Shown: positions 4,782 to 47,670 of the stretch, piece after piece | Layout: the number at the start of each line of letters is the position of its first letter | Numbering within the stretch: position 1 is the stretch's first letter | From: Bacteroidales bacterium | GTDB taxonomy: Bacteria > Bacteroidota > Bacteroidia > Bacteroidales > VadinHA17 | Direction of reading: 5' to 3' | Assembly (NCBI GenBank): GCA_963668715.1 | Contig: OY764960.1 | Location: 2,511,602 to 2,575,601 of the forward strand | DNA: 64,000 bases | The notes under the pieces: model-generated | Databases searched by the model: none | The model's input: the letters and a program-made list of their open reading frames with translations, nothing else | What the model was told of the DNA's origin: nothing | Made by a program: the position numbers and the translations under genes

Positions 4782-5085
4782 AAATATAAAGTTTTAGAAA
4801 CAAAATAATTATGCTAAAAGGAATATTTGTCTTGTAATAAAAGATAAGTCCACAATCCACAGTCCACAATCCACAGGCCACAGGCCGCAATGTTAATTGG
4901 TTTATTGGTTAAATGGTTGACCTGTTAAGTCGTTGAGTTAGTTGACTAAACAATTCTTTTACACTTTTTTCTTACAATACTAAGTCCAATACACCAATAC
5001 ACCAATTAATGAATTAACATTTGAAGACTGTGGACTGGAATAACAGTCATTCCGTTAGTCTTTAGTCTTTTGCCTTTTGTCTTCA
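4782..5085. repeat. Mosaic intergenic repeat, locus A
   Basis: A 69-bp left segment (4782-4850) is about 91% identical to 8401-8469. CACARTC word array at 4849-4888. CAATGTTAATTGG at 4888-4900. GTTAAG/GTTGAG words at 4909-4946. An inverted second copy of the cagtc-aatgttaatt-ggtgtattgg block at 4983-5038. Pyrimidine-rich end module TTAGTCTTTAGTCTTTTGCCTTTTGTC at 5055-5081. Confidence 0.85.
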
Positions 5086-5696
5086 TAAAAATATGCCTCT
5101 TTCCTGTCTGCATCATCCCATGTAATAATTTTTTTGTCACGATTGATCCAGTAGAAATTGATCAGGGCAAAATCGCCGGCACACATCGTAGTATGCATGA
5201 AAAGGCTGCAGAGAATACTCCAGCTCCATAGTGGTGAATGAATAATAACTATCAGACAGATTAATAAAGCGCTTATTATAACGAATGGTGTTAAGGCTAC
5301 AATAATGAAAAGTACCGGGCCAACAGGGAACATATGGCTTGTAACATAGAAGTAATACTGGTTCCAGTCGGCGCCAATACGTATGTTCCTGGCACCACCG
5401 AAGAAATAGGGTATAATGTGAAGAAATTCGTGCGGGATAGCCAGTATAAGAGGTATTAAGATAATACCTATGGAACTATGCATTAATATTGTCAGAAAAG
5501 AATAATTATCCGAAAGAGCAATTCTGAAATCAGCCATCCATATTATTATGGCCAACAGAAATGACCAGGCCGATATCACAGGGAAAGTATGTTTTTTGAT
5601 ATATTCAAAAACAAAAGGTATCATTTCATCATATGATAAGGTGCGCAGGTGACAGAAGCGGTCACTTTTTACAATGTCCCGGACTTTTGTTTTCAT
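5055..5696 (-). CDS. DUF3267-like polytopic membrane protein, putative zincin metallopeptidase
   Basis: HExxH motif (PHEFLHIIP) inside a multi-TM protein. I prefer the ATG at 5696 (MKTKVRD) over the TTG at 5720 used by the track. The last 8-9 codons and the stop lie inside repeat locus A. Confidence 0.6.
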   Translation of the reverse strand: MKTKVRDIVKSDRFCHLRTLSYDEMIPFVFEYIKKHTFPVISAWSFLLAIIIWMADFRIALSDNYSFLTILMHSSIGIILIPLILAIPHEFLHIIPYFFGGARNIRIGADWNQYYFYVTSHMFPVGPVLFIIVALTPFVIISALLICLIVIIHSPLWSWSILCSLFMHTTMCAGDFALINFYWINRDKKIITWDDADRKEAYFYEDKRQKTKD

Positions 5697-5842
5697 GATT
5701 ATGTAAAGGTATTTATACAATTGAATAATTACAATATGCTGCTGGCTACCAGCGTTTAAAAACGGTGACGTTGTCAGGGATACTGTAAAACCGGATAATG
5801 TCTTTAAAAAACAGGATCAGATAAACGGTTTTTTCATTGTTT

Positions 5843-8227
5843 CTATTCTACTACCCATTCCTGTAAGCCGCAAGCACATTTCTTTTGTCTTTTTACAACC
5901 ATTTTCAACGAAGTGGTTTTTACCGGCTCAAAACGTACTTCATTATATCTCCGTTCTTCAGTGCCGTATTCATCCAGGTTATTAACAGGCTGCCATTCTT
6001 TATTATCATTGAGATATAACAGCTCCCATGATTCGGGAGGACGGCAACATGTCCAGGGTTGATCGTCGTACCATATAATCATGGTAAATGGCCTGTCATA
6101 CCAGTATACTTTGACAGAAGATACGGTTTCAGGTTTATTAAAAACATATTGAACCCAGCCTGTTGTATCTTTTAATGGCCATTTGTAATAGCCACATACC
6201 GGATTACACTGGAGATTTGAAACAAAACGCTGGTCATTTATGCTTTTAATAGTGACAGTATCATAGGAGGATAACACTTTGCTTGTTGCTGCAATAGTAG
6301 GTGACGGATCACGATGAGGTATGATAGCCCATTCTTTACAGGGTATCCATACGATCATCTCTGACGGTCCCCTGTTGGCCCACAGGTAATAAGGTATCGC
6401 CCTTACTTCCTGTTCATTCATTATGGGTTTATCATTACCCTGTTGTTCTCTGAAACTGTACCCTGTAGTATTAAGTACATATGTCCCGTCAAGCAGGTTA
6501 TCTTCTTTTTCTATACTGAAGGATGCTTCCGGTTTGATCATTATATTCTGAACATGGCCTTCTTTATTGTCCTGTCCCTCCAGACAGTATACGACAGGGC
6601 CTCTCTGAAGGGCCATTCTTCCCCTGTCAGCCACTACATTATTGTCGGCATATATTTTCATGACATCCATCGGAAGCTCCAGTTTGATTTCATCACCTGC
6701 AGACCATCTTCTTTCAAAGACCGCATAACCGTTTTCTTTATAATATTTTACAGGTTTCCCGTTAAGGCTTATCTTAACGTTATCTTTATGCTCGTTTTCA
6801 TAATAATAAAGGCCGGAAGGGAGAGGTTGTTTTTCTGCCCATCCGGGAATCCTTACCCTGACAGTGAATTTCCTGTTTTTTAACGGATCAACCTTTATAA
6901 TTATTTCTCCATCCCATGGATAGCCGGTTTCCTGCGATATCTCAACAGCTCCGTTTTTCAGATCCACCTTACTGCTGCTACCGATAAAGAGGTTTACATA
7001 CAGGTCATTCTCTTTATATGCGTAGATAAAACCCGGTATTTGTGGCATAAATCGTACAATGTTGGTAAGACAGCATGGGACACCATAGAATGAAGCCCTC
7101 TGGTATTCTCCGTTTGAAGCAAGTGGATTGGGATAGAAGAAACGGTCCCCGCTAATAGAAACACCGTCAAGGAGGCTGTTATAAAGAACCCTTTCAAGTA
7201 CATCAATATATGCAGCATCACCTTTTAGCCTGAACATACGGTCATTCCATAAGATGTCGGCTATTGAGGCACATGTCTCATTATAAGCTATTTCATTGGG
7301 AAGTTGGTAACGTTTGCCGAAAGCCTCATCATAATCGTATGATCCTGTGCCTCCGGTTATATATATTTTTGATCTTACCATGCTTTTCCATATGGTGTCG
7401 ATAGCCCTGGCGTATCCCCTGTCTCCTGTTAATGCTACAATATCTGTTACTCCGGAATAAAGATATAGCGCACGCACGGCATGACCGATTGGTTCTGTCT
7501 GGTCTGTTACTTTCTTATTCGATACCCCATATTCAGTCCCGTCAGGGCCCCTGGAATCGATAAAGAATTTTGAAAGTTCAAGATATTCCTTTTTACCTGT
7601 AGCGCGGTACAATTTCACCAAAGCCAGCTCTATTTCAGGGTGGAATGGGTAAGCTACAAGTTTGTCAGGCCCGAAAACAGACAATAGTAGTTGTGCATTT
7701 TTTTCAGCCATATCAAGCATGTCTTTTTTACCCGTTGCCTCATAATGAGCCACGGCAGCCTCAAACATATGCCCGGAAAAATACAGTTTATGACTACCGC
7801 CCGTTTCACCGAAATCCTCGCCCAGCCAGCGTAGTGAGTCCGGCATGGGTGTCCTGTTTGGTTTTGCCCCGGGGAACAACAGGTCGCCGTCGGGTTGCTG
7901 CGATTCCCTGACTATCTGAATAAGCTTATTTGCCATTGATTCCAGTTGAGGACTATCATCAGTCATCATATAATAGGATATACCCTCAAGTACTTTATAG
8001 AGACTCGATCCTCCCAGTCCGCCTTTATCCTCTAACTGTCCCAAAACAAAGGGAAGTGTAACATTCAGGTTTCGTTCTATCTTGTGATTCCAGAAAGCAT
8101 CCTTCATTTCTACTTCCGTAAAGTGTACGGGATGAATGGGATAATCCCTTTTTTCAGGTTGCCTGCTGCTTGTCATAACAGCAACAGGAATAAGTACCAT
8201 AATAAAATTAATAATGTTTCTTTTCAT
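5843..8227 (-). CDS. Glycoside hydrolase family 127 (DUF1680, beta-L-arabinofuranosidase-like), secreted
   Basis: 794 aa with a signal peptide. GH127-like segments: HKLYFSGHMFEAAVAHY, AYNETCASI, YGVPCCLTNIVRF (Cys cluster). An extra C-terminal beta-sandwich-like region is present. Confidence 0.8.
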   Translation of the reverse strand: MKRNIINFIMVLIPVAVMTSSRQPEKRDYPIHPVHFTEVEMKDAFWNHKIERNLNVTLPFVLGQLEDKGGLGGSSLYKVLEGISYYMMTDDSPQLESMANKLIQIVRESQQPDGDLLFPGAKPNRTPMPDSLRWLGEDFGETGGSHKLYFSGHMFEAAVAHYEATGKKDMLDMAEKNAQLLLSVFGPDKLVAYPFHPEIELALVKLYRATGKKEYLELSKFFIDSRGPDGTEYGVSNKKVTDQTEPIGHAVRALYLYSGVTDIVALTGDRGYARAIDTIWKSMVRSKIYITGGTGSYDYDEAFGKRYQLPNEIAYNETCASIADILWNDRMFRLKGDAAYIDVLERVLYNSLLDGVSISGDRFFYPNPLASNGEYQRASFYGVPCCLTNIVRFMPQIPGFIYAYKENDLYVNLFIGSSSKVDLKNGAVEISQETGYPWDGEIIIKVDPLKNRKFTVRVRIPGWAEKQPLPSGLYYYENEHKDNVKISLNGKPVKYYKENGYAVFERRWSAGDEIKLELPMDVMKIYADNNVVADRGRMALQRGPVVYCLEGQDNKEGHVQNIMIKPEASFSIEKEDNLLDGTYVLNTTGYSFREQQGNDKPIMNEQEVRAIPYYLWANRGPSEMIVWIPCKEWAIIPHRDPSPTIAATSKVLSSYDTVTIKSINDQRFVSNLQCNPVCGYYKWPLKDTTGWVQYVFNKPETVSSVKVYWYDRPFTMIIWYDDQPWTCCRPPESWELLYLNDNKEWQPVNNLDEYGTEERRYNEVRFEPVKTTSLKMVVKRQKKCACGLQEWVVE

Positions 8228-8400
8228 GTCTTTTAGCGTTTAATTCAGGTGCAGAATTGTCTATTCAACTTTTTCGATTGCCCTTTTAGTATGAACTTTA
8301 TCATATAGCAGCAGGAATAAACTGGCTGCTACAGCAATCTGTGAACATTATCCGGATATTACCAGGTTTGCTCATAATACAGTTGTATAATAGAACCCAT

Positions 8401-8582
8401 AAATATAGGGCTTTAGAGACAAAATAATTATGCTAAAAAGAATATTTGTCTTGTAATAAAAAATAAGTCGGCAGTCCACAATTCACAGTCCGCAATGTTA
8501 ATTGGTGTATAGCGTTAAACGTTCCGGGTTAAGCGTTCCGGGTTCCCTTGTCCCTTTTGCTGGTGCGGACGGAAAGAGATGG
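8401..8582. repeat. Mosaic intergenic repeat, locus B
   Basis: The 69-bp segment shared with locus A, then GGCAGTCCACAATTCACAGTCCGCAATGTTAATTGGTGTAT, then AGCGTTAAACGTTCC/GTTAAGCGTTCC words, then GTTCCCTTGTCCCTTTTGCTGGTGCGG. It ends in a truncated, arm-flipped hairpin core (GCGGACGGAAAGAGAT). Confidence 0.85.
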
Positions 8583-8615
8583 TTTAATACCATTTATTAT
8601 TAATTTTGTCATGAA

Positions 8616-9230: not shown

Positions 9231-9288
9231 AGGCACTAAAGGCTATAGAGGCTTTAAAGGCTAAAGGGGCTTTTTAGCCGGAATTATT

Positions 9289-9939: not shown

Positions 9940-9980
9940 TTGATTTTGAACTTTGGTTTCCATAAAAATATGAAATTTTA

Positions 9981-10219
9981 ATAACAAAGACGAACGGTTA
10001 GCCTCCAGTCGGCAATCTGCAGCCCACAGTCTTCAGTCGCAAGGTTTATTTGTTGAGCTGTTAAGTTGTTTATGTCTCGTTACTTATAACCTTCGCTGGC
10101 GCGGATCTCTCCCCGTCCGCCAAAGCTTCATCGTAGGCGGAAGATCCGTGCCTATCACTCACCATTCTCTATTATTCCATTACTCCATCGTTCCATTGTT
10201 CCAGTATTCCATCCTTCCT
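9981..10219. repeat. Mosaic intergenic repeat, locus C (with full hairpin core at 10095-10152)
   Basis: ATAACAAAGACGAACGGTTAGCC, then cagtc words, then GTTGAG/GTTAAG words. The core is GCTGGCGCGGATCTCTCCCCGTCCGCCAAAGCTTCATCGTAGGCGGAAGATCCGTGCC. A CATTCC/CCAT word array follows and abuts the stop codon at 10220. Confidence 0.9.
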
Positions 10220-11488
10220 TTAGAAGGTAACAAACATCAATACCGGATTATCATTTTCAGAAAGCCTGTTTGCAAGTTCTTCAAGTTGTTCTTTCCTGTA
10301 AGCATACTTAGGGGTACTGTTCCTGAAATTTTCACTGGCAATATGTTCTTTGAGCTCTTTTGCTGAGACTATCATTATCATGGTTGAATCGTTTACTGTT
10401 TTTACAGGAAAAAACCTTGGACCGCCATCAATATCGTTATAGATGCCTGAAGTATACAGAGGATTATCCGTGTCGGTAGGTTTACAAAAAATCAGTTCGT
10501 TCTTGTTTTTATCAAATATACCAAGACAATCTGTTATATTTGTTATAACCGGGTTCCCTCCCTGAGATGTTGATTGTTTGGGTGTAAGCCTTTTTGCGGG
10601 GAAACGATTGTCATAATTAACTTTCAGAAACAGATAATTTTCAGTTTCAAAGATGTCTTCAACGGCAATAAAATCATTCATCTTCTGAAAATATTCGTAA
10701 AAGTTACTCCTTACCGTTTCTGGCATTTTCAGGTTTCCCATATCAAATGAATAACGGGGAGAAAGTTTATAATTTTCATCGAGAGAAAATAGAGTATCGG
10801 TAAATTGTTCCTTGAAAGAAAGAGTTCCGGCAAACTCATATACCTGTGTTGAGCCTCCGTTTATTCTTGAACCTTTGATTTCCAGTATGTCATGATTGGT
10901 AAATGACTGTTTGATTTCCCCTTGCATATTAACTAGCATTGCTTTTGTTTCCGTTTGTCCGTCATCATTAGTTATGTGGCCGAAGATCAGCGAGTCGTCA
11001 ACAATATCCCAAGGTTCGAGTAGATGTTTTCCGCCAAAGGACAGGGCTTTAGGGTATTTATTTTCAAAGTCTCCGTCTGTATTAAACACGAATAAGTCAT
11101 ACGTACTGCTGAAATATATTTTATTTCCAACAATAGAGAGGTTCTCAACAGACTGGTATTCTTCAGGTCCTCGTCCTCCGTGGCCAAATCTCCTGATAAA
11201 TTTCCCTGACCTGTCGAACAGTACCAGAGACAATTTCCTGTCGGAAGTCAGGATATGCTCCTCAGAAATGTCAAAATTCAGGTAGTCTCCAAGTACGAGT
11301 TCAGGATTTGTTTCAAGAGGAATGTATTTAATTTCATCTGCAAACCGGCTTAGATTGATCTGTTTCATGTTATTAATATTACCTGCAATATCAATATTCC
11401 TGATTACCTGTTTCTGTGATTGATCATTGTTGCAGGCGACAAATATTATTACTAATAAGAAAGGTGTAATAATTTTTAAGTATTTCAT
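10220..11488 (-). CDS. 6-bladed beta-propeller lipoprotein (BF3164/TolB-like family)
   Basis: Lipoprotein signal MKYLKIITPFLLVIIFVAC at the ATG at 11488. Family-like segments: IKYIPLETN and FDRSGKFIRRFGHGGRGPEEY. The track's upstream extension runs into repeat locus D. Confidence 0.6.
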   Translation of the reverse strand: MKYLKIITPFLLVIIFVACNNDQSQKQVIRNIDIAGNINNMKQINLSRFADEIKYIPLETNPELVLGDYLNFDISEEHILTSDRKLSLVLFDRSGKFIRRFGHGGRGPEEYQSVENLSIVGNKIYFSSTYDLFVFNTDGDFENKYPKALSFGGKHLLEPWDIVDDSLIFGHITNDDGQTETKAMLVNMQGEIKQSFTNHDILEIKGSRINGGSTQVYEFAGTLSFKEQFTDTLFSLDENYKLSPRYSFDMGNLKMPETVRSNFYEYFQKMNDFIAVEDIFETENYLFLKVNYDNRFPAKRLTPKQSTSQGGNPVITNITDCLGIFDKNKNELIFCKPTDTDNPLYTSGIYNDIDGGPRFFPVKTVNDSTMIMIVSAKELKEHIASENFRNSTPKYAYRKEQLEELANRLSENDNPVLMFVTF

Positions 11489-11595
11489 TTGAATATTTTT
11501 TAACCCGTATATGGATAATGTTTCCGGCAAGATGAACGCATATAGTGCTAAAACAAGTATAAATTTTCTTTTATGCCTCAATATTGCCTTTAAAG

Positions 11596-12200
11596 ATAAC
11601 AAAAACGAACAGCTAACCCTTCGACAGGCCCTTCGATGGGCTCAGGACAAGCGACGAACGGCAAAAGACGAAAGACTAAAGACAAAAGGAAAAAGTCTAC
11701 AGTCTACAGTCCGCAGTCGGCAAATGTTAATTGGTATATTTGTTAGTTGGTTGATTGGTATATTCGTTTTATTTGAGTTGTGTTAGTTCATAGCTTTTTA
11801 GTTATTCAGTTAACAGTAATTCATTATCTCATCTCTCTGTCTTCTGTCTAATTCCTGATCCCTAATCCCCAGTCCCTTTTGTTGGTGCGGATCTCTCTCC
11901 GTCCGCCGCCTCCGTCGGCCATAGGTTGACTTCGGCGACCGGAGGCCGAAGCTTCAGCGCAGGCGGAAGATCCGTGCCTGTTCATATCTGTTAACCACTC
12001 ACCCATATAAATTCATTCTAAACTCATTCTTTCTCAACCTTGTAAACTATTTTCCCTTTAGTCTTTTGTCGTTAGCCTTTTGTCTTTATTGGTATAGGAA
12101 TGATTAATTAACAGGCATTTAATACTATATAAACTCATTTTAAACTCATTCTCAACTTTCTCAACCTTGTAAACTATTTTCTCTTTAGTCTTTTGTTTTT
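11596..12200. repeat. Mosaic intergenic repeat, locus D (largest composite; hairpin core at 11881-11978 with nested insert)
   Basis: Contains nearly every module: ATAACAAAAACGAACAGCTAACCC; the purine-rich GACGAAAGACTAAAGACAAAAGGAAAAAGTC; TACAGTC words; CAAATGTTAATTGGTATAT; GTTAG/GTTGA words; TAATCCC words; the core; the AAACTCATTCT..CTCAACCTTGTAAAC module twice (12020-12087 and 12141-12200), each followed by the pyrimidine-rich TTTAGTCTTTTGT end module. Confidence 0.9.
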
Positions 12201-12254
12201 ATATTCACCATGTCATTAAATTTGTTATATGATAGTATATAAAAGTAAGGCATA

Positions 12255-18641: not shown

Positions 18642-18648
18642 GATAACC

Positions 18649-19709: not shown

Positions 19710-19790
19710 AGGGATCAGGGATTAGGGATTAGGGATCAGGGATCAGGGATTAGGAAAAACAACTATATAATCCTTTTGTCCTTCGTCGTT
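19710..19790. repeat. Mosaic intergenic repeat, locus E (short)
   Basis: Six tandem GGGATYA heptamers (19711-19752) plus the pyrimidine-rich CCTTTTGTCCTTCGTCGTT (19772-19790), 8 bp from the rluD stop. Confidence 0.7.
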
Positions 19791-19798: not shown

Positions 19799-20830
19799 TT
19801 AAACCATTTCCCTGCCTGCAATATAACCGCGCCATTTTTCCAGGAGCTGCGCCATGTCATCAGGCATATCCGACTCAAACTCCATTCGCGTTCCTGTTAC
19901 CGGATGGTTAAATGAGAGATATTTTGCATGCAAGGCCTGCCTCGGTAATATATTGAAGCAATTTCTGATGAATTGCTGGTATTTTGTAAAAGTGGTTCCC
20001 CGTAATATTTTGTCCCCTCCATAATCCCGGTCATTGAACAGAGGATGACCTATATGACTCATATGCACTCTTATCTGATGAGTCCTCCCTGTTTCAAGCT
20101 CACATTCTATAAGTGACACATACGAAAGATCTTCAAGTAATCTGAAATGAGTAATTGCAGGTTTGCCTTCACTGGAATCGGGGAATACATGCATTATCTT
20201 ACGGTTGCGGGGGCTTCTGCCGATATTACCTTCTATTGTCCCTTTATTTCCGGGATTACCCCATACCAGCGCAGTATATCTTCTCCCTGTACTATGTTCA
20301 TAGAATTGTTTTCCCAGTTTGTTAAGGGCATATTCGGTTTTTGCTACAACAAGAAGACCTGAAGTATTTTTGTCTATCCGGTGTACCAGGCCAGGCCGTA
20401 TCTCACCGCTATTGAACATGGGCAGATCACTGAAATGGTACAAAAGGGCATTAACAAGGGTGCCGTTATAGTTTCCGAAGCCGGGATGTACAACCATCCC
20501 CGCTTCCTTATTTACTACAAGCAGATCATCGTCTTCGAATACTATATTAAGGCGAATCTCTTCAGGTAATATCTCTGTTTCATGTGGAGGGTGCGTAAGC
20601 AGTATCTGTATCACATCACCGGGTTTGACCTTATAACTCGGCTTTACCGGCTCGTTGTTAACCACAATATTTCCTGCAATGGCTGCGCTCTGAATACGTG
20701 TACGCGAGGCATTTTCAATCCGGTTAACGAGGAATTTATCTATTCTTAATGGTTTTTGTCCCGGATCTGTTTCAATACGGTAATGTTCGAACAGTTCATT
20801 ATTATCAATGTTTTCAGGAACAGCATTCAT
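19799..20830 (-). CDS. rluD: RluA/RluD-family 23S rRNA pseudouridine synthase
   Basis: S4-like N-terminus (RIDKFLVNRI...SRTRIQ). Catalytic motif HRIDKNTSGLLVVAK. QIRVHM near the C-terminus. Confidence 0.9.
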   Translation of the reverse strand: MNAVPENIDNNELFEHYRIETDPGQKPLRIDKFLVNRIENASRTRIQSAAIAGNIVVNNEPVKPSYKVKPGDVIQILLTHPPHETEILPEEIRLNIVFEDDDLLVVNKEAGMVVHPGFGNYNGTLVNALLYHFSDLPMFNSGEIRPGLVHRIDKNTSGLLVVAKTEYALNKLGKQFYEHSTGRRYTALVWGNPGNKGTIEGNIGRSPRNRKIMHVFPDSSEGKPAITHFRLLEDLSYVSLIECELETGRTHQIRVHMSHIGHPLFNDRDYGGDKILRGTTFTKYQQFIRNCFNILPRQALHAKYLSFNHPVTGTRMEFESDMPDDMAQLLEKWRGYIAGREMV

Positions 20831-25194: not shown

Positions 25195-25446
25195 GATGGA
25201 ACACTGGAACACTGGAGTGCTGGGGTGATGGTAAATAGAAGGAAATAAGAATTAGGGATTAGATTAAGAAATGACAAGTGACATCTGTCTGGCAGTCTCC
25301 AGTCCACAAGTTAATTTGTATATTGGTGTATTGGTATATTGGGTTGAACTGAAAAACTTATTTAAACTCATTCTCAACTTTCTCAACCTTTTAAACCCTT
25401 CCGCCTTCCGCCTTTTGTCTTTAGCCTTTTGTCGTTTGTCGTTTTT
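25195..25446. repeat. Mosaic intergenic repeat, locus F
   Basis: GGAACACTGGAACACTGGAGTGCTGG words; TTAGGGATTAG; GGCAGTCTCCAGTCCACAAGTTAATTTGTATATTGGTGTATTGGTATATTGG; AAACTCATTCTCAACTTTCTCAACCTTTTAAAC; CCTTCCGCCTTCCGCCTTTTGTCTTTAGCCTTTTGTCGTTTGTCG, which overlaps the rsmG 3' end. Confidence 0.85.
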
Positions 25447-26068
25447 CAGACGCCGGCATATATACAATTTTTTTTTCGCTGAAGTACTCTTCTTCGAAAT
25501 ATTCATTCAGATTAAGTATAATGCAGCGTGGAAATTTTATGAGCTCGTCTTTCAGGTCTCCTCCTTTCAAAATTATCAGACCGTTTGGCATGTTATTGAA
25601 TGATTGTCTGCTGATTTTCCCGGAGGTCCACTTAAAAAGAGCTTCAAATGGAGCAACTGCACGGCTGACAACAAAATCGACCTCTCCTGGCATGTCTTCA
25701 ATCCTGTTCCATGCTGTTGAAACGTTAACAAGACCCAACCTGTTTTTTATATCGTCAACTGCATTGATCTTTTTTCTGACTGAATCTGCCAGTATGAAAT
25801 TACATTCGGGAAATACTATTGCAAGAGGTATTCCCGGGAATCCTCCCCCGGTGCCTGCATCGAGGACGTTTGTTCCGGCTTTAAAGCTTATAAAACGGCT
25901 TATGGCGAGTGAATGTATGATATGATGAAGGGTAAAATTATCCATATCTTTTCTGGAGATAAGATTAAGCCTGGTATTCCAGTCGGAGTAGAGCCTGTTA
26001 AGGCTTTCAAGCATTATCAACTGTTTATCTGTCAGACAGGTAAAATACTTTTTTAACAGCTTGTTCAC
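25421..26068 (-). CDS. rsmG: 16S rRNA (guanine527-N7)-methyltransferase RsmG (GidB)
   Basis: LNLISRKDMDNFTLHHIIHSL and the SAM motif VLDAGTGGGFPGIPLAI. The last about 8 codons and the stop lie in repeat locus F. Confidence 0.9.
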   Translation of the reverse strand: MNKLLKKYFTCLTDKQLIMLESLNRLYSDWNTRLNLISRKDMDNFTLHHIIHSLAISRFISFKAGTNVLDAGTGGGFPGIPLAIVFPECNFILADSVRKKINAVDDIKNRLGLVNVSTAWNRIEDMPGEVDFVVSRAVAPFEALFKWTSGKISRQSFNNMPNGLIILKGGDLKDELIKFPRCIILNLNEYFEEEYFSEKKIVYMPASEKRQTTKG

Positions 26069-30153: not shown

Positions 30154-30364
30154 AAACAGTCGAAAAATATATTTTAGTAAATATTTGATATTGTATTATA
30201 TATGGAGATAAAACTGATAATTAATATATCATATTCGAAAAAAAACTGATGTATGTTCTTTATTTATTCATCCTAATTTATTAATGTTGCATGCTTAAAA
30301 CAGTAGAATATTTGGGTTAATATGTTAGTTCGCGGTTGTCCGATACAATATTATTTGAAATGAT

Positions 30365-30455
30365 AATAAAGGCTAACCCCCCGACAAGCTCGGGGGCAGG
30401 CGACAAACGACGAACGGTAAATCAGGGGCACATCCGTTTGTCTTTGGTCTGTCTT
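30365..30455. repeat. Mosaic intergenic repeat, locus G (short)
   Basis: GGCTAACCCCCCGACAAGCTCGGGGGCAGGCGACAAACGACGAACGG parallels 11611-11662 of locus D. It contains a perfect 7-bp-stem hairpin (CCCCCGA-caagc-TCGGGGG). CCGTTTGTCTTTGGTCTGTC follows. Confidence 0.65.
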
Positions 30456-30512
30456 ATAATCATCCTGTTACTAAATTTGTTATATATATAAAATTAATAA
30501 ATACAAATACTT

Positions 30513-33294: not shown

Positions 33295-33797
33295 AAAGAC
33301 AAAAGACTAACGACGAAAGGCTAAAGACAAAAGGAAAAAGTCTACAGTCTTCAGTCCACAGTCGGCAAATGTTGATTGATAGCGTTAAGCGTTCCGCGTT
33401 CCATGTTCCCTTGTCCCTTTTGTTGGTGCGGATCTACCTTGCTGGCGCGGATCTCCAGATCCGTGCCTTCTCATCCATCTCTCATCTCTATTCACCATTC
33501 ACTTTTTCACCGTGTGCCACCGTGATCCTCCGTGTCCACTGTGGTGAAATATATTATTTGTTTAAAAGTTGAGAAAGTTGAGAATGAGTTTAATGAGACG
33601 AAAGACTAACGACGAAAGACGAAAGGTTATTCAGGTTCTCCATCGTTAACGAATACACCAATACAAATTAATATTTCTGACGAATATTGCTCTGGTCCCT
33701 TTGCGCTTTGCAAATCAACATTGCGGACTGAGGACTGCCGATTGCCGACTACTCAGCATTCCATCATTCCATCATTCCATCATTCCATCATTCCATC
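33295..33797. repeat. Mosaic intergenic repeat, locus H (two elements in inverted orientation upstream of dnaB)
   Basis: The left half (33295-33545) has the purine-rich module, cagtc words, CAAATGTTGATTGAT, GTTAAGCGTTCC words, a collapsed core at 33422-33467 and CTCATC/TTCACC/CGTG words. The right half (33562-33797) carries the AAACTCATTCTCAAC, ggtgtattcg, aatgttgat and cagtc modules in reverse complement. It ends in 5 perfect CATTCCAT octamers (33757-33796). Confidence 0.9.
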
Positions 33798-33938
33798 TTT
33801 ATTTCAACAAGATATCAACATAAACATGTTTGTAATATTTGGTGTTTATTACTGGGCCTAAGCTATGTATTTCCTACCTTTGATCCAGTCAGGTACGATA
33901 CGGATGCCTGCGTTTAATTAAATGATAAACAAACACAT

Positions 33939-40207: not shown

Positions 40208-40208
40208 A

Positions 40209-41012: not shown

Positions 41013-41606
41013 ATGCATTTTCTTGAAAATTCTGTTGACCATATAAATAAACGGGGATCAATAGAGGTTATTGCGGGGTCGATGTTCTCAGGCAAGACAG
41101 AAGAGCTGATACGAAGACTTAAAAGGGCAAAGATTGCAGGCCTGAAAGTTGAAATATATAAACCTTCGGTCGACACACGATATTCAGATACTTTTGTTGT
41201 TTCGCATGATGAGCGTTCTATTACCTCAACGCCGGTTGATAATGCATCCATGATACTACTCCTTTCGGCAGGCGTTGATGTAGTTGGTATCGACGAGGCG
41301 CAATTCTTTGACGAAGGACTGGCAGATGTTTGTAATGAACTTGCAGACCGGGGCGTAAGGGTAATAGTAGCCGGTCTGGATATGGATTACAACAGGGAGC
41401 CGTTCGGTCCGGTGCCTGCTATAATGTCTGTAGCCGAATATGTTTCAAAAGTTCATGCCATTTGTGTTGAATGCGGTAACCTCGCGCAGTATTCATTCAG
41501 GATGACCGATAATAAATCGAGGGTACTCCTGGGAGAAAAGGATATTTATAAACCTCTTTGCAGGGATTGCTATAATAAATTCAGAGAACAGGAGGAAGAG
41601 AGTTGA
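41013..41606 (+). CDS. tdk: Thymidine kinase
   Basis: P-loop [17 protein letters not shown], and C-terminal zinc ribbon (CVECG...CRDC). Confidence 0.9.
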
Positions 41607-44077
41607 AGACAGATCTCAGGAAAGTGGCCGAAATAGCCGGGTCGGAGCTGAAAGGTAATTCATCAATTGAGATAAAGGAATTACTGATTGACAGCAGGAA
41701 GATACCTAAATTTCCTGATGGTACGCTTTTTATTGCCCTTAACGGAGAAAAGAATGACGGGCATAATTATATCCCGGACATGTATGAATCGGGAGTGAGA
41801 GCTTTTATGGTGACAAAAGGTTGTTTCAGGGAGGCATATGAAAAGTTTCCCGGCGCCGGATTCGTTGTTACTGAAGACAGTCTGGCTGCATTACAAAAAA
41901 TTGCTGCCTGGAAAAGGGGGAATTTTAAGGGAAAAGTAATATCGGTTACCGGGAGTAACGGCAAAACTATAATAAAGGAATGGCTTTCCGATATACTCGG
42001 AAAACATGAAAGCCTGTACAGAAGCCCCGGTAGCTATAATTCACAGGTGGGAGTGCCGCTTTCGGTCTGGGGCCTTGAAAACAATTACAGTACGGCAATA
42101 ATAGAAGCCGGTATGTCAAGACCCGGAGAGATAAGCAGACTGGAGAAGATAATAAAGCCGGAGATTGGAATTTTTACTCATATCGGCGAAGCTCACCAGG
42201 AAAACTTTGACAGCATCAGCCGGAAAGTATGTGAAAAGCTGGAATTGTTCCGGGATTCGCAGGTTATTATATATCCTTCCGATGAAAAGGAAATTCACGA
42301 TAATATTATCAGGGATGAACATCTTTCCTGTAAACGGCTATTTACCTGGTCCCGTTATAATGAGAAAGCTGACGTTATTATTGATCATGATCCCGGGAAT
42401 GAAAAGGGCCGGCTTCTCAACATCGGCTTTGGTGATTTGAGATTCTCATGTATTATTCCTTTTATTGACAGGGCTTCGCTTGATAATATGTCAACAGTTA
42501 TAACTACCCTGCTGTACCTTGGACTTGATCCTGAGTCAATAGCTGATGGTATAAGAAACCTTGAACCGGTGGCCATGCGCATGGAGCAGAAGGAAGGTAT
42601 TAATAATTGTCTGCTCCTCGAAGATATATATAACTCCGACCCGGGTTCACTTAAGATAGCGCTCGATCATATTAAAGGGATCTCTGATAAGCGACTTACG
42701 CTAATTCTGTCCGACTTTATTCAAAGCAGCAGGAACCTTGAACAACTATACAAACAGGTAGCGGAGATCATAAGGAAGGCTGGTGTAAACAGGCTTATTG
42801 CCGTGGGACCGGGAATAAGCAGATACAGTGACTTTTTTAAACTGGCTGACAAAAAGTTTTATGCAGGCACGGAAGACTTCATAAATTCTTTTTCTTCTGA
42901 CGATTTCAGTAATGAAGCAATATTATTAAAAGGAGCCAGAATGTTCGGGTTCGAGCGTATCGGCAGGTTGCTGGAACTGAAAACACACCAGACACAGCTT
43001 GTGATAAACCTAAATAAGGTGCTTACAAATCTTAATACCTTCAGGACATACCTCGACAGGAACACAAGGATTATGGCTATGGTCAAAGCTTTTGCGTACG
43101 GAGCAGGCCCCATGGAGATATCCGAATGGCTTGCTTATAACGGGGTCGATTTTCTGGCAGTTGCATATCCTGACGAGGGCTTTAGTCTCAGGAAGAACGG
43201 GATTAACAAAAGGATAATGGTAATGAACCCCGACAGGTATGCCTTCGGTCAGATGATAGAGTATGATCTCGAACCTGAAATATACAGTCCCGATATACTT
43301 AATCATTTTATCACAGAAGCTAAAAAGTACGGACTGAATGATTATCCGGTACATATAAAGATCGATACCGGAATGCACAGACTCGGCTTTATGGAACAGG
43401 ATATTGATCAGATGGCTGCAGTACTGAATACAACAGCTCAGGTCGGGATTGCTTCTGTTTTTTCACACCTGGCTGCAGCATACGACCCTGCATTTGATGA
43501 GTTTACACATGAACAGGTCAGGACCTTTACAAGAATCTGCGACAGGATCGGAAAGTTAACAGGTAGTTCTTTTCTCAGGCATATATTAAATTCGGCGGGC
43601 ATAATAAGATTTCCGGAATACAGATTTGATATGGTGAGGCTGGGAATAGGACTGCATGGAGTCTCAGAAGTTGAAACAGATGGTTTAATGCCGGCCTCGT
43701 CCTTTTATACACATATCTCGCAGGTTAAAAGAATAGGAAAAGGGGAGGGCATAAGCTATGGTCTCATGGATGTATCTGATGAGGAAAGGAAGATTGCCAT
43801 ACTTCCCATCGGCTATGCTGACGGACTCAGAAGATCTATGGGTGCCGGCAGAGGCAGGGTTTATGCTGACGGTCATTTCCTGCCAATCACAGGAAATATC
43901 TGTATGGATATGTGCATGATTGATATAAGCGGCACTGACCTGAAAGCAGGGGATAAAGTTGAAATATTCGGGGATAATATAAGTATAAAAGAAATAGCAG
44001 AAATATGTGGTACAATACCCTATGAAATACTTACAGGAATACCCGCCAGGGTTAAAAGAATATTTCTGTATGAATAG
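41603..44077 (+). CDS. murF/alr: Bifunctional UDP-N-acetylmuramoyl-tripeptide--D-alanyl-D-alanine ligase (MurF) / alanine racemase (Alr)
   Basis: The N-terminal about 440 aa are a Mur ligase ([13 protein letters not shown]). The C-terminal about 370 aa are an alanine racemase (PLP-lysine motif [11 protein letters not shown]). The TTG start at 41603 overlaps the tdk stop. Confidence 0.9.
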
Positions 44078-44788
44078 CTAGCCCAGAGTACTTATTCTTT
44101 CAAGCTTTCTTGAATCGAGGATTTTAATTTTTCTTCCGTCAATTGCAATAACATTCTCGGAAGCAAAGGTTGAAAGTGTCCTGATAGCATTTGATGTTGT
44201 CATATTTGACAGATTGGCTATATCTTCCCTTGACAGGTATGCCTTTATTGTTTTACCGTCACTTTCATATCCATAGGTTTCTTTCAGAACGAGTAGCGAT
44301 TCGGCCAGCCTGCCTCTTATATGCTTCTGGGTCAGTGAAACAGTCCTGCTGTTTGAAAATCCCAGCTCCTGCGATAATATTTTTATTATTTTGATCGACA
44401 ACTCCTGACTTTCCTTAACCAGATTTAAAAACGAGTCTTTCTCAATAATACAAATCGTAGAGTCTTCAATTGCAATTGCCGAAGCAGAATATGGAGCCCC
44501 TGCAAGCAAAGCCCTGAAGCCTAGGAGGCCAGACGATTTTACCATCCTGAGTATTTGTTCGCGTCCGCCTACTCCTTCCTTGAATATCTTAACCTTACCG
44601 GTGGCAAGACTTATCAGTCCCGGTGGTTTTTCTCCTTCTTTAAAAATGATCTCACCTTTACGGTAATGAGCATACGAATGGTTTTGAACCAGTGTTTCCC
44701 TTTCGGAAAATTTGAGGCTCTTGAAAATCGAGCCCGGACTTTCAATGCAACTCTCGATGTATTGATTTTTGTATAGTGCTGTCTTCAT
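44078..44788 (-). CDS. Crp/Fnr family transcriptional regulator
   Basis: cNMP-binding beta-barrel (IFKEGEKPPGLISLATGKVKIFK...GREQIL) and a C-terminal HTH (REDIANLSNMTTSNAIRTLSTF). No N-terminal Cys cluster, so it is not a classical FNR. Confidence 0.85.
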   Translation of the reverse strand: MKTALYKNQYIESCIESPGSIFKSLKFSERETLVQNHSYAHYRKGEIIFKEGEKPPGLISLATGKVKIFKEGVGGREQILRMVKSSGLLGFRALLAGAPYSASAIAIEDSTICIIEKDSFLNLVKESQELSIKIIKILSQELGFSNSRTVSLTQKHIRGRLAESLLVLKETYGYESDGKTIKAYLSREDIANLSNMTTSNAIRTLSTFASENVIAIDGRKIKILDSRKLERISTLG

Positions 44789-44792
44789 TTAA

Positions 44793-44814
44793 GCATATGT
44801 TACATAACATATGC
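44793..44814. promoter_or_regulatory. Perfect 22-bp palindrome GCATATGTT-ACAT-AACATATGC (core ATGTT-N4-AACAT), candidate Crp/Fnr-family operator overlapping the regulator's own transcription start region
   Basis: The 9-bp arms are exact reverse complements. It lies 5-26 bp upstream of the Crp/Fnr ATG (44788) and shares base 44814 with the minus-strand -7 box. Confidence 0.5.
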
Positions 44815-44821
44815 AAAAATA
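44814..44821 (-). promoter_or_regulatory. Bacteroidota-type -7 promoter box (TATTTTTG = TAnnTTTG) for the Crp/Fnr gene
   Basis: The plus-strand CAAAAATA at 44814-44821 reads TATTTTTG on the minus strand, 26-33 nt upstream of the ATG. Confidence 0.5.
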
Positions 44822-44913
44822 ATAAAAGTAGGACACAAAAACTAAATTAACATTTTTTAACACATTCATTAACAGTATGTTGTAAAGTTCACGAATACAG
44901 AAATTTACTTATT

Positions 44914-44927
44914 ATGTTGTAAAACAT
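44914..44927. promoter_or_regulatory. Second ATGTT-N4-AACAT palindrome (ATGTTGTAAAACAT)
   Basis: Same 5-4-5 architecture, 126-139 bp upstream of the Crp/Fnr start codon. Confidence 0.4.
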
Positions 44928-45002
44928 GCATGCTTCAAAGGATATGATTCCTGTCATATTTTAGGTGCTTGTAAGCTTATTTGTAATTAGTCTAAATAAT
45001 GA

Positions 45003-46652
45003 TTAGTAATCTGCCACCAGCGGCATTCGTCTTCCCATACCGAAAGCCTTGCTTGATATTCTTAAAACAGGAGGGGACTGGTATCGTTTATATTCATTGT
45101 TATTGATAAGCTGGACTACTGAATTCACCAATCCGGAATTAATACCGGTACCTGTAATACCGGACAGGGGCTTTTGCAGTTCAATATACTGGTACAGTAT
45201 TGAATCGAGCACTTTGTAATCGGGCAGTGAATCGGAATCTTTCTGCCCCGGTCTGAGTTCAGCGGAAGGTTCTTTATTAATTATATTCACCGGAATAATT
45301 TCCTTTAGCCTGTTTATATAGCCTGCAAGCTTGTAGATATCTGTTTTATAAACATCGCCCAGTACGGATATGCTTCCTGCCATGTCTCCGTAAAGAGTTC
45401 CGTATCCCACGGCAGCTTCGCTTTTATTGGATGTATTAAGCAATATATTACCGAATTTATTCGATACGGCCATAAGAAAGAGGCTTCTCAGTCTGGCCTG
45501 TATGTTTTCCTCTGTCACATCTTCCGTCTTACCTGTCATAATTCCTGCCAGTGATTGCTTTATGGTATGATAAGCTTTTTCAATATTTACAATATCATAA
45601 CTGACTCCCAGGTTTTCACTTAGTTTTATTGCATCATCAACAGAATGACTGCTCGAGTACATTGAGGGCATAAGCAGTGCACGTACTCTTGAGGGGCCGA
45701 GAGCATCAGCTGCGATGCAGAGGCATACTGCTGAATCTATTCCCCCGGAAAGGCCAAGGACAGCATCACCGAAATTCATTTTGCTGAAATAATCACTGAT
45801 TCCCATTACCAGTCCGGAGTATATCATTTCTATACGGTTAGTATTTATTTCCGTATGGCAGGTCATATCTGCGATCTCTTCAAGCTTGTAGCTGGCAGTA
45901 TGTTCCCTGAACGAGGGGAACATACTTATAATATTACCACCGGGGCCTACAACCAGGGAGTTTCCTTCAAAGATAATGTCGGTATTTGCTCCGACCTGAT
46001 TTACCATTACCAAAGGTATCTTATATCTGGCTGCTTTACCTGTGAATATTTTTAACTTCTCCTCCATCCTGTTATGGGCAAAGGGAGAGGCAGAAATATT
46101 AACTATAAGATCTGGCTTTTGCCTGGCAAGTTCATCCATCGGCGATATTGAGTACATTTTTGAACTGCTGAATTCGTTTTCAAAACCCTGCTCGTCCCAC
46201 AGGTCTTCGCAAATTGTGACAGCCAGTCTTATACCGTCAAGATCAATTACCCTGAAATCGGTAGAGGGCTCAAAATACCTGTACTCATCAAAAATATCAT
46301 ATGTAGGAAGCAGACTCTTATATATGATATCGTGAACAATCCCGTTCCTGAGTATATACGCAGCATTGTACAGTTTTTTCCCGCTTGGGTTCCTGTTTAT
46401 TGCCGGGGCACCTATTATAGCCGTAATACCCCTGCATTCGGAAGCGATAAGATCGATATATTTATTGCATTTGTCTATGAAAGTGCTGTATTCAAGCAGG
46501 TCATGAGGAGGATAGCCTGTCAGCGAGAGCTCGGAGAACACTATCAGGTCCGACCTGTCTCTTTTTGCCCTGGAGATATTGTCCAGGATGATACTGCTGT
46601 TTTTTTCAAAATTGCCGATATGATAGTTTAATTGTGCAAGTGTAATCTTCAT
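45003..46652 (-). CDS. nadE: Glutamine-dependent NAD+ synthase
   Basis: N-terminal CN-hydrolase domain (MKITLAQLNYHIGNF...VFSELSLTGY...CEDLW). C-terminal PP-loop synthetase (LGLSGGIDSAV). Confidence 0.9.
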   Translation of the reverse strand: MKITLAQLNYHIGNFEKNSSIILDNISRAKRDRSDLIVFSELSLTGYPPHDLLEYSTFIDKCNKYIDLIASECRGITAIIGAPAINRNPSGKKLYNAAYILRNGIVHDIIYKSLLPTYDIFDEYRYFEPSTDFRVIDLDGIRLAVTICEDLWDEQGFENEFSSSKMYSISPMDELARQKPDLIVNISASPFAHNRMEEKLKIFTGKAARYKIPLVMVNQVGANTDIIFEGNSLVVGPGGNIISMFPSFREHTASYKLEEIADMTCHTEINTNRIEMIYSGLVMGISDYFSKMNFGDAVLGLSGGIDSAVCLCIAADALGPSRVRALLMPSMYSSSHSVDDAIKLSENLGVSYDIVNIEKAYHTIKQSLAGIMTGKTEDVTEENIQARLRSLFLMAVSNKFGNILLNTSNKSEAAVGYGTLYGDMAGSISVLGDVYKTDIYKLAGYINRLKEIIPVNIINKEPSAELRPGQKDSDSLPDYKVLDSILYQYIELQKPLSGITGTGINSGLVNSVVQLINNNEYKRYQSPPVLRISSKAFGMGRRMPLVADY

Positions 46653-46662
46653 TGCAGACTGC

Positions 46663-47358
46663 TTAAAAGTTTAATCCTAATCTGAATCTGACCATACGGT
46701 GCCTTACCTTATCCTCCGGTTGCCCCTCATAGTCTTTTGTAACATCCAGGAAGTTATCCTCATAAACCAGTCCGGCAACAATAGCAGTTGAGCCTCCGAG
46801 CGAATATTCCATCCCGGCAGCCACGAAATATCCTAGGTTGAATATTTTGAGTTCTTCAGTAATATTTTCGTTATCAATATTTTGTGAAGGGATATTGCAT
46901 TTGCCGCCAATCACTGCCTTTGGATTCATCCCTACGTTGGAGAAAAATGTCATATAACCGATCTGGTTGGTCTTCAGTTTTATACCAATGGGAACAGAGA
47001 GATATTGTATCCTGTATACTATATTCTCACCTGCATTCAGAACGGTTTCGGAATTCTTCAGCCTTATATCTATAGTATCTGCATAGTTTAACCTTCCCGA
47101 TGCATTTATGATATTTATACCGGTAGAGAATGCATAGTTTTTCGCGAAATATGTGTCAAAAGACAAGCCAAAGGCAAAACCGGGTCTTGCACCGTCATTT
47201 AAGGTAGATCTTGTATCAGAAGAGAACCAGCTTATAAGAGGCTCTGTATATAATCCCAGTTGAATATTCTGTGATGATAATGTATTGCTTAACAATGGCA
47301 AAAAAACAACTGTTGCGATCAGTCGTATAAATATTGTTTTATTTTTTATTTTGCTCAT
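46663..47358 (-). CDS. Outer-membrane beta-barrel (porin-like / OMP_b-brl type) protein
   Basis: Signal peptide, alternating beta-strand pattern, and C-terminal LGLNF. Confidence 0.65.
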   Translation of the reverse strand: MSKIKNKTIFIRLIATVVFLPLLSNTLSSQNIQLGLYTEPLISWFSSDTRSTLNDGARPGFAFGLSFDTYFAKNYAFSTGINIINASGRLNYADTIDIRLKNSETVLNAGENIVYRIQYLSVPIGIKLKTNQIGYMTFFSNVGMNPKAVIGGKCNIPSQNIDNENITEELKIFNLGYFVAAGMEYSLGGSTAIVAGLVYEDNFLDVTKDYEGQPEDKVRHRMVRFRLGLNF

Positions 47359-47469
47359 ATTATGATATTTGCTATTAAGGCAGATTATTATTAATAAAGC
47401 GAATTAAAAATTCAAATATACAATTATACAAATATATCAGTTTAGTCCCGTTTAAGTAAATATTTCATG

Positions 47470-47670
47470 AACGACGAAAGACAAAAGGAAAAAGTCGGCA
47501 GTCCACAGTCCCTTTTGCTGGCGCGGATCTCTCTCCGTCCGCCAAAGCTTCAGCACAGGCGGAAGATCCGTGCCTAATCCCTGATTCCCAGTTCCTAATC
47601 CCTTCTCGTTTTGTCACTCGTCACTCGTCACTCGTCACCTGTTCACTTATTCACTATTCACTATTCACTA
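47470..47670. repeat. Mosaic intergenic repeat, locus I (compact; full hairpin core at 47517-47574)
   Basis: ACGACGAAAGACAAAAGGAAAAAGTCGGCAGTCCACAGTC. The core is CCCTTTTGCTGGCGCGGATCTCTCTCCGTCCGCCAAAGCTTCAGCACAGGCGGAAGATCCGTGCC. TAATCCC words follow, then TCACTCG x3 (47614-47634) and TTCACTAT words, ending 2 bp from the citC stop. Confidence 0.9.

Follow-up and report, generated by a model that had tools for sequence, protein, structure and literature searches.

What kind of DNA makes up nine related intergenic loci in a Bacteroidales genome, and how did it come to be there? The loci, designated A to I, lie in a 64,000-nucleotide stretch of a Bacteroidales bacterium (VadinHA17 lineage; GenBank assembly GCA_963668715.1, contig OY764960.1, positions 2,511,602 to 2,575,601 of the forward strand), which is referred to below as the window and numbered from its first letter. 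They are built from short tandem arrays, single-copy modules and a bulged hairpin, named T here, and sum to 2458 nt, or 3.8% of the window, as an earlier note made from the sequence alone had estimated (about 2.4 kb). On balance, the nine loci are probably lineage-specific, non-autonomous, invasive non-coding repeat DNA and not conserved regulatory sequence.

The sequences that the earlier note described are present at all nine loci, at the coordinates it gave, and each of its ten modules was found. The loci fill 8 of the approximately 11 intergenic gaps longer than 200 bp, which agrees with its count, and the remaining long gaps are ordinary sequence. When the nine loci were compared as queries with the entire window (blastn-short), 69 non-self matches were obtained; each falls in one of the other eight loci, and coding sequence has none. 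Such matches join A and B (58 nt, 95%, E = 5e-21), D and H (67 nt, 94%, E = 1e-23, and a further 26 nt at 100%), C and I (60 nt, 93%, E = 5e-20), and D and F (36 nt, 97%). Exact 12-mers common to different loci, counted on both strands, number 538, compared with a mean of 1.7 and a maximum of 16 among 500 sets of random segments of sizes matched to the loci. At this word length, eight of the nine loci are connected; locus G, the weakest member, is tied to D by the gapped module GCTAACCC..GACGAACGG (two matches, none expected). Tandem Repeats Finder returned 25 rows of period 7 or 8 in the window, with at least 12 different units, and 579 of the 657 bases in arrays of these periods (88%) fall in the nine loci.

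The loci are not the single repeat family that had been proposed, and their components fall into three classes. The first consists of imperfect tandem arrays with units of 7-8 nt in 2-6 copies each. These include the purine array P (units GACGAAAG, ACAAAAG and ACTAAAG), the array Q (CACAGTC and variants), and arrays of TTGGTATA, GGGATYA, CATTCCAT, GTCACTC, TTCACTA, TGGAACAC, CCTTCCG and CACCGTG. The second class comprises the single-copy modules R (AATGTTAATTGG), S (GTTAAGCGTTCC..GTTCCCTTGTCCCTTTTGYTGG), V (AAACTCATTCTCAACTTTCTCAACC), W (GCTAACCC, a small GC hairpin and CAGGCGACAAACGACGAACGG) and module 10, and the third is the bulged hairpin T of about 55 nt. The modular organisation seen in the earlier note is real, but the free shuffling of modules that it described is not: the order P-Q-R-S-T recurs on the plus strand at five loci (B, C, D, H and I), each of which lacks different parts, and D is the fullest composite. 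The mosaic thus appears to derive from longer composites by deletion and inversion. Loci A and D have inverted arms 29-35 nt in length and 79-81% complementary; those of A are made of Q/R units, whereas at D, P(+) and P(-) form arms of 32-35 nt with 80% complementarity.

Arrays of this kind could in principle arise by purely local simple-sequence instability, that is, by slippage within each spacer with nothing moving between loci. The arrays are short and imperfect, their copy number differs between loci, and among the long simple-sequence repeats of bacteria, units of seven bases are the most frequent, according to the summary of Mrazek 2007 in PMC4679880. However, slippage does not explain non-repetitive modules of 26-67 nt that different loci share at 94-100% identity in a fixed order, the excess of shared 12-mers, or the occurrence of T and a short form of it in other genomes. 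Purely local slippage is contradicted by these observations and is very improbable. An assembly or collapse artefact has a negligible probability, since nothing in its favour was found and the repeats are of small size (near identity extends over 67 nt at most), lie inside a 4.27-Mb contig and recur in independent JGI, ENA and NCBI assemblies; the recurrence of T in particular speaks against an artefact, a possibility raised in the earlier note.

In hairpin T, the outer stem (GGCGCGGATCT / AGATCCGTGCC) has 11 bp, one of them G·T, and the inner stem (TCCGCC/GGCGGA) has 6 bp; the remaining parts are a pyrimidine bulge of 7 nt and a variable apical mini-stem. The strand competent for G·U pairing folds at -30 to -40 kcal/mol (z = -4.4 to -4.8), compared with a z of about -2 for the complement, and the G·T wobbles all lie on one strand. 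Among the 11 copies without nesting that made up the covariation set, 96.9% of cells are paired, against 37-45% when the partners are slid. Three of four apical pairs are altered on both sides (GCTC/GAGC, GCCT/AGGC, GTC/GAC). The inner stem shows GC in seven copies and GU in four, and nested copies show a completed inner-stem change, TCCACC/GGTGGA. Because the wobbles are one-stranded and the stems change by compensation, T seems to be recognised as a folded single-stranded nucleic acid. A reading of the bulged hairpin as an integron attC site was rejected, as GTTRRRY core sites and an integrase are both lacking.

In the window, loci C, D and I each hold a copy of T, H has a short form and B a truncated one; all five are intergenic and on the plus strand. 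Five copies in 64 kb would correspond to a few hundred per genome, although this is only an extrapolation. In species-representative genomes, a scan with an 18-mer of T gave 33 matches, roughly the chance number, two of which are true full hairpins (in a Rikenellaceae metagenome-assembled genome and in Bacteroidales UBA9300). Metagenome contigs were searched with a gapped pattern that fixed the outer arms. Of 24 matches, 15 are true members (GC 0.40-0.48), the others being chance matches in GC-rich coding DNA; the invariance of the outer arms in the metagenome copies is forced by this search and is no evidence, but the window copies, which were found independently, show the same asymmetry of the arms. 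Overall, T occurs in about 17 contigs of other Bacteroidales, where it is again flanked by heptamer arrays, and the viral contigs searched held no copies.

The copies of T also record nesting of one hairpin within another. The short form is a palindrome of 27-28 nt (GCTGGCGCGGATCT-CC-AGATCCGTGCC), and its copy at H (GCTGGCGCGGATCTCCAGATCCGTGCC) is 100% identical to those in L049 and L053 (L numbers denote compared sequences). The long form equals the short form with a hairpin of about 34 nt in its loop (CTCTG-TCCGCC-GAAGC..GCGAAGG-CGGA), and this inner hairpin stands alone in L039. In seven metagenome contigs, the loop of a long T contains an inverted short T (a GGGTCT variant with a compensating change). 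At locus D, the apical region of T carries a nested secondary hairpin of 40 nt (GCCTCCGTCGGCC..GGCGACCGGAGGCC, 11908..11947, plus strand) that the copies at C and I, collinear in other respects, do not have. Left arms of T stand in tandem with a 24-nt period in L005, L041 and L049, and with a spacing of 19 nt at H. In L053 (770-985), four complete T copies, three short and one long, and a partial left arm situated between complete copies lie within 210 nt, all in direct orientation. Outside the window, other Bacteroidales contigs show arrays and hairpins together, in places as extreme versions of this kit: a CTGGGTC array lies on both sides of T in L046, L054 and L058; a 650-nt palindromic mosaic in L056 (9040-9700) has at least eight different arrays around T, with hairpins and inverted copies of arrays; and L039 (100-490) contains about 40 units of the P array (CTTTCGT/CTTTTGT) with hairpins interspersed.

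Presence and absence of the repeats were compared at orthologous spacers for loci F, G and H only, in four syntenic relatives (L034, L061, L064 and L066) that share the gene order from a radical-SAM gene to nadE. Their DnaB proteins are 80-88% identical to that of the window, and protein identities between the window and L034 range from 59% to 91%. Homologues of the window proteins carry annotations as proteins of Bacteroidales or Bacteroidota metagenome-assembled genomes. Spacer F measures 654 nt in the window and 594, 564, 491 and 282 nt in L034, L061, L064 and L066, respectively; spacer G measures 359 nt against 203, 204, 204 and 196 nt, and spacer H 669 nt against 408, 240, 258 and 207 nt. 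The repeats account for most of these differences. They lie exactly between conserved flanks, namely the rpmH promoter region, the accB upstream block and the dnaB upstream block. In L061, L064 and L066, the corresponding intervals consist of unique sequence, and no dispersed repeats were found in the syntenic 21 kb; in L034, the F and H intervals are occupied by an unrelated repeat family instead. Arrays of period 7 or 8 amount to 10.3 bases per kb in the window, 0-0.7 in L061, L064 and L066, and 21 in the T-bearing L056. Because the same intervals are repeat-free or differently filled in the relatives, the repeats are lineage-specific, and certain spacers have been colonised repeatedly. The elements are thus missing from all four relatives, and such turnover is the outcome that the author of the earlier note had tied to mobile DNA. 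The DUF5128 gene between C and D was rejected as an orthology anchor, since it belongs to a paralogous family and its best match (57% identical) is non-syntenic, which leaves C and D without an orthologous comparison.

As a side observation, the repeats of L034 (870-1045 and 8765-8985) consist of small GC hairpins followed by CGTAATTT (e.g. CCCCGCTAGCGCGGGGCGTAAC) and CCTTAGC heptamers, and a GACGAAAG array adjoins the rpmH terminator in the same sequence.

The position of the loci relative to genes bears on whether they serve the host. All nine spacers hold at least one gene start (six tandem, three divergent), and the convergent spacers of the window, of at most 120 nt, are repeat-free. T has a mixed orientation with respect to neighbouring genes, being antisense to both of them at loci C and I. 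The P arrays start at or over stop codons. The neighbouring genes that the earlier note named (DUF3267, rluD, rsmG and citC) were correctly identified, and the stop-codon adjacency it reported holds: two arrays end 0-3 nt from a stop, and in two genes the array itself supplies the stop. RsmG ends in ..YMPA-SEKRQTTKG* (25421-25447), with the nine-residue tail SEKRQTTKG and the stop read from the purine array, compared with ..YMPV*, ..YMEV*, ..YMPL* and ..YLPV* in four relatives that have no tail. DUF3267 has a similar purine-array tail, EDKRQKTKD* (5055-5084).

Promoters of Bacteroidetes have the consensus TTTG (-33) / TAnnTTTG (-7). The exact 14-mer TAAATTTGTTATAT, which contains the -7 consensus TAnnTTTG, stands at the gene-proximal edge of D, ahead of thpR, and of G, ahead of accB, with 25-28 nt between it and the start codon. 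The stretches that end in it (12199-12230 and 30454-30485) are identical at 27 of 32 nt. At D, a TTTG lies 21 nt upstream of the box, inside the P(-) array; the accB gene of the relatives has no box of this type. The loci might be read as host-useful DNA modules, acting as binding-site arrays, insulating spacers or portable promoters, with the TTTG of P(-) as the -33 and the TAAATTTG box as the -7 element. Such a role would suit the restriction of all nine loci to spacers with a gene start, the shared box, the 58-nt promoter-like segment common to A and B, and the filling of spacers F and H with different repeats in two lineages. Yet in three relatives the same genes have short, repeat-free spacers, and the array units vary by locus and by genome, a poor fit to one binding protein. 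The box occurs at two loci only, the TTTG spacing at G is 25-31 nt and not 19-21, and a search for the box with two mismatches gave a chance result (4 matches, 2.25 expected). Host usefulness as the explanation of the loci is therefore doubtful.

Elements acting at the RNA level seem just as doubtful. According to this explanation, T and the arrays would be cis elements, either 3'-end hairpins (mRNA stabilisers, or non-canonical or Rho-linked terminators) or parts of 5' untranslated regions, roles that have been put forward for many repetitive extragenic palindromes (REPs). For many T copies the distance to a stop codon is 16-100 nt, and arrays abut stop codons, but loci D and H occupy divergent promoter spacers, and relatives manage the same genes without the elements. 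T is very stable and keeps its G·U pairs on one strand, as an RNA would; that strand, however, is antisense to both flanking genes at C, I and L001/L059. REPs are found mostly downstream of coding sequences, and it is plausible that many of them are transcribed (Di Nocera et al., PMC3733652). In the present case, no T-run follows the hairpin and a terminator scan calls none of the T copies, which, together with their occurrence in either orientation to neighbouring genes, speaks against the terminator role suggested earlier. Terminator-like sites in the scan are not enriched (15 against 15.8 expected; 22 against 16.4 expected). Rho utilisation was also considered and rejected: the tracts after T are G-poor on the T strand, but transcripts of the genes at C and I would carry the G-rich complement. 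Rfam 15 gave no match in the whole window at the gathering score, and a permissive search (E up to 5, positions 4700-47800) gave only an unrelated snoRNA model in coding DNA. A tRNA and tmRNA scan of the window returned nothing.

How far, then, do the loci resemble known repeat systems? The comparison that the earlier note drew with REPs and the bacterial interspersed mosaic elements (BIMEs) built from them is fair as an analogy, but does not extend to membership. Like the loci described here, REP/BIME elements and the REPIN-RAYT system (RAYT, REP-associated tyrosine transposase) involve dispersed intergenic imperfect palindromes that form mosaics or clusters with other motifs (PMC3116915, PMC3733652). 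They share with T a strand-asymmetric mismatch and variation between related genomes, and T is itself a short, dispersed, extragenic imperfect palindrome, stable and intergenic in all window copies. REPs are regarded as non-autonomous elements that are mobilised in single-stranded form, as DNA, and their loops are targeted by other elements (PMC3116915, PMC3733652). However, the REP palindrome has a conserved GTAG (or CGTC) tetranucleotide at one end (PMC3733652), whereas T is flanked by (C/T)GCTGG at its 5' end and has a variable 3' end. CGTC occurs in the window copies only within the bulge and inner stem, where most other copies have TGTC, and GTAG is confined to the solitary inner hairpins of L039. 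The alternating orientation of BIMEs, in which a few linker motifs separate the REPs, is lacking too, as the five window copies are all on the plus strand and the L053 cluster is direct. T is longer than a REP (27, 55 or about 125 nt), has a 7-nt bulge and nests recursively, and the DNA around it consists mostly of 7-8-nt tandem arrays, which BIMEs lack. In REP-RAYT systems, REPs flank the gene for a RAYT (Y1 transposase) in the genome that carries them; no such gene is among the window genes.

A closer likeness may exist to cyanobacterial repeats that Elhai et al. reportedly described in 2008 (Genome Res 18:1484). These are said to be intergenic heptamer arrays of many different kinds, termed short tandemly repeated repetitive (STRR) sequences, with hairpins of 21-27 nt, the small dispersed repeats (SDRs), inside the arrays and inside their own copies. 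The SDR hairpins reportedly show compensatory changes and presence/absence between relatives, with no evident transposase or target duplication. On that description, array embedding, self-nesting and compensatory changes would be common to SDRs and T; the differences are the phylum, the unrelated sequences, the larger size of T and the fixed P-Q-R-S-T order. As in STRR-type or other long simple-sequence repeats, the arrays described here are head-to-tail, with units in the range of 5-11 nt, mainly intergenic and of several families. TAACTGA and other heptamer direct repeats are known from Beggiatoaceae, Cyanobacteria and five Bacteroidetes (PMC4679880). Those heptamers are also intergenic, sporadic across lineages and of several kinds, and the spacers of relatives are shorter and repeat-free. 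The present arrays differ from them in their units, in not being concentrated just upstream of starts in one orientation, and in being tied to a hairpin family and single-copy modules. The suggestion of one family does not hold, and much of the DNA consists of heptamer or octamer arrays such as have been reported from cyanobacteria, Beggiatoaceae and some Bacteroidetes (PMC4679880).

The loci can also be set beside the modular small repeats of Gram-positive bacteria and miniature inverted-repeat transposable elements (MITEs). Examples of these are Correia, Nezha and the BrickBuilt elements of P. gingivalis. The pneumococcal BOX element has the modular structure boxA-boxB(n)-boxC (PMC3049150). 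With the loci they have in common a modular make-up with variable internal units, a length of 100-600 nt and a place beside genes, with possible side effects as promoters or terminators. The inverted terminal arms at D and A may recall those of MITEs, but they are made of array units; no unique-sequence terminal inverted repeats, target-site duplication or parent insertion sequence was found, and the module order is only partly fixed. A CRISPR array was rejected, in agreement with the earlier note: the units are 7-8 nt and contiguous, unlike the identical, regularly spaced repeats of 24-48 nt with unique spacers of similar length in such an array, and no cas genes lie in the window. By analogy, then, the loci may work like BIME/REP mosaics and, above all, like the cyanobacterial heptamer arrays with SDRs as reportedly described. 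The kind of DNA is familiar, namely invasive non-coding repeat DNA, whereas the family itself is real and, as far as checked, undescribed. Literature searches found no described Bacteroidales family of this kind, and the T hairpin family likewise appears undescribed as far as checked.

If the loci are indeed invasive repeat DNA, two processes could have shaped them. In the first, small hairpin elements would be copied into single-stranded, structure-defined targets. The basic unit would be the short T; a hairpin of about 34 nt in its loop would give the long T, to which further hairpins or an inverted short T could be added. Loops of existing hairpins and heptamer arrays would be the preferred landing sites. 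Copying would depend on a trans-acting enzyme encoded elsewhere in the genome. Since the analogy with mobile elements is to REP/RAYT, we infer that the most likely candidate is a single-strand transposase of the HUH/Y1 type, similar to RAYT or the TnpA of IS200/IS605 (PMC3116915, PMC3733652). In the second process, the 7-8-nt arrays would lengthen and shorten by slipped-strand mispairing, and template switching could generate inverted copies and hence long imperfect palindromes such as the P arms of D and the Q/R arms of A. Composites in P-Q-R-S-T order would be copied between spacers and then suffer internal deletion, giving the mosaic look. The repeat DNA, presumably without a function for the host, would accumulate where selection allows, as far as stop codons and, in the case of two genes, across them, and would supply TTTG/TAnnTTTG promoter-like boxes incidentally.

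Several points weigh against the interpretation as invasive DNA. No mobilising gene was found in the 64-kb window; protein domain searches and synteny tables gave no transposase or integrase domain there, as the earlier note had already stated. No target-site duplication or clean element end is definable for the composites, and fold-back replication, instead of insertion, is a possible origin of nested palindromes. A gene start is present in each of the nine spacers and an exact TAAATTTGTTATAT box stands at two element edges, so some host use of the elements is possible. No recent insertion or excision was seen: the best relative is 88% identical in DnaB, about 30 sister clusters lie at 86-88%, most window proteins are singletons when clustered at 90% identity, and strain-level relatives are absent. 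Gain in this lineage is the preferred reading, but loss in the relatives could formally have produced the same pattern. The invariant outer-stem G·T of the metagenome copies is in part a product of the search pattern, and yet all window copies have it too.

There is also a modest chance that T and its relatives are an undescribed class of self-nesting, structure-targeted mobile hairpins whose mechanism is unlike that of REP-RAYT, insertion sequences or MITEs, with an unknown single-stranded-DNA- or RNA-mediated copier. Such a class would insert into hairpin loops and heptamer arrays, perhaps seeding the arrays, and T and the arrays would then reshape gene ends and promoters genome-wide.

Whichever mechanism applies, non-coding DNA of an invasive kind, missing from close relatives at the compared spacers, would make up about 4% of the stretch. 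The ancestral state can be read from several syntenic relatives, and nesting provides an internal record of insertion order. The consequences for genes are concrete: two proteins gained array-encoded C-terminal tails and two genes gained a promoter-like box. Identification of the mobilising activity would either bring Bacteroidales into the REP/RAYT picture or uncover a new mechanism of small-element mobility, and might account for the joint occurrence of heptamer arrays and small hairpins in unrelated phyla. The T hairpin is also a ready metagenome marker for this group of Bacteroidales.

The anatomy of the individual loci illustrates how these components combine. Locus A (4782..5085) lies between the DUF3267 stop and the start of a major facilitator superfamily (MFS) gene. 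It comprises a CACAGTC-type Q array (4847-4891), R (AATGTTAATTGG followed by TTGGTNTA, 4889-4920), an inverted R (4986-5021), an inverted Q (5021-5045) and a P array in minus orientation (5055-5085), which encodes the last nine residues and the stop of the DUF3267 gene. Locus B (8401..8582, plus strand) occupies a divergent spacer and contains the 58-nt segment common to A (8412-8469), Q (8465-8496), R (8490-8510), S (GTTAARCGTTCC..GTTCCCTTGTCCCTTTTGCTGG, 8511-8561) and, from 8557, a truncated left arm of T. A Chi-like reading of GCTGGTG was rejected, since B alone matches at 7 of 8 positions and there is no other support. Loci A and B are also linked by a duplication of about 110 nt (4740-4850 and 8360-8470), which includes the promoter-like 58-mer (95%), a start codon and about five codons (MSK.G). 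The first copy belongs to the MFS transporter gene (3328-4755); the second heads only a 24-codon open reading frame (ORF) upstream of a gene for a 794-aa hydrolase. The duplication may represent a promoter duplication or a leader peptide.

Locus C (9981..10219, plus strand) contains the module ATAACAAAGACGAACGGTTAGCC (9981-10003), a Q-type array (10005-10045), a complete hairpin T (10098-10152) and CATTCC/CCATTACT arrays (10162-10219) that run to the stop codon of the DUF5128 gene (10220). Locus D (11596..12230, plus strand) begins with module 10 (11596-11618) and module W (11612-11661), which are followed by P(+) (11653-11697), Q (11694-11720), R (11721-11760), TAATCCC words (11848-11877) and hairpin T (11884-11978). 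Beyond T, it has two copies of V (AAACTCATTCTCAAC.., 12005-12050 and 12127-12174), two of P(-) (12056-12088 and 12177-12200) and the TAAATTTGTTATAT box (12217-12230). The gene between C and D (10220-11602) is a 460-aa frame with a TTG start in the ORF list, compared with 422 aa for the database DUF5128 protein (start near 11488); with the latter start, the D spacer measures about 770 nt and not 652. Spurious ORFs run through the arrays (e.g. 11511-11786 and 25264-25506), which makes arrays of this kind an annotation caution wherever ORFs are called crudely.

Locus E (19710..19790) consists of a GGGATYA array of 6.4 units (19710-19754) and a purine array in minus orientation (19771-19790) that begins a few nucleotides past the rluD stop (19799-19801). 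Locus F (25195..25446), between rpmH and the rsmG stop, has a TGGAACAC array (25197-25216), Q (25290-25308), R (25309-25345), V (25361-25396), a CCTTCCG array (25397-25414) and the P(-) array (25411-25446) that encodes the RsmG tail and stop. Locus G (30365..30485, plus strand) is part of a window-specific addition of about 155 nt upstream of accB and carries module W (GCTAACCC, a CCCCCGA/TCGGGGG hairpin and CAGGCGACAAACGACGAACGG, 30372-30417), GTTTGTCTTTGGTCTGTC (30436-30455) and the TAAATTTGTTATAT box (30472-30485). Locus H (33295..33797) fills the divergent ispE-dnaB spacer. It contains P(+) (33295-33342), Q (33339-33363), R' (33364-33383), S (33380-33424), an orphan left arm of T (33425-33435), the short-form T (33441-33468), CTCATCT/CACCGTG arrays (33470-33545), V(-) (33560-33593), a second P(+) (33596-33626), inverted R and Q (approximately 33655-33745) and 5.1 units of CATTCCAT (33757-33797). 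Two blocks that all syntenic relatives have conserved neighbour G and H: TTCGAAAAAA..TTATTCAT..TTTATTAATGTTGTATGC before accB (30225-30300) and CAACAAGATATCAACATAAAATGTTTGTAATATT before dnaB (33800-33840; 8985-9025 in L034, with equivalents in L061, L064 and L066). Both are probably promoter or operator regions.

Locus I (47470..47670, plus strand) comprises P(+) (47470-47496), Q (47492-47511), T with its 5' flank CCCTTTTGCTGG (47508-47574; arms at 47520-47530 and 47564-47574), TAATCCC words (47575-47605), 3.7 units of GTCACTC (47613-47638) and four units of TTCACTA (47642-47670), which stop 3 nt from the citC stop. It marks a junction of a 10.3-kb block (47673-57934) that encodes citC, citXG, citF, citE, citD, a monomeric isocitrate dehydrogenase and aconitase B, and that sits between an outer membrane protein (OMP) beta-barrel gene and gldB. 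The locus lies exactly at the OMP-side junction, and the gldB-side junction (57935-58501) is free of repeat modules. In two syntenic relatives (L067, 7165-7310; L068, 7136-7310), the OMP gene and gldB are direct neighbours, approximately 130-160 nt apart.

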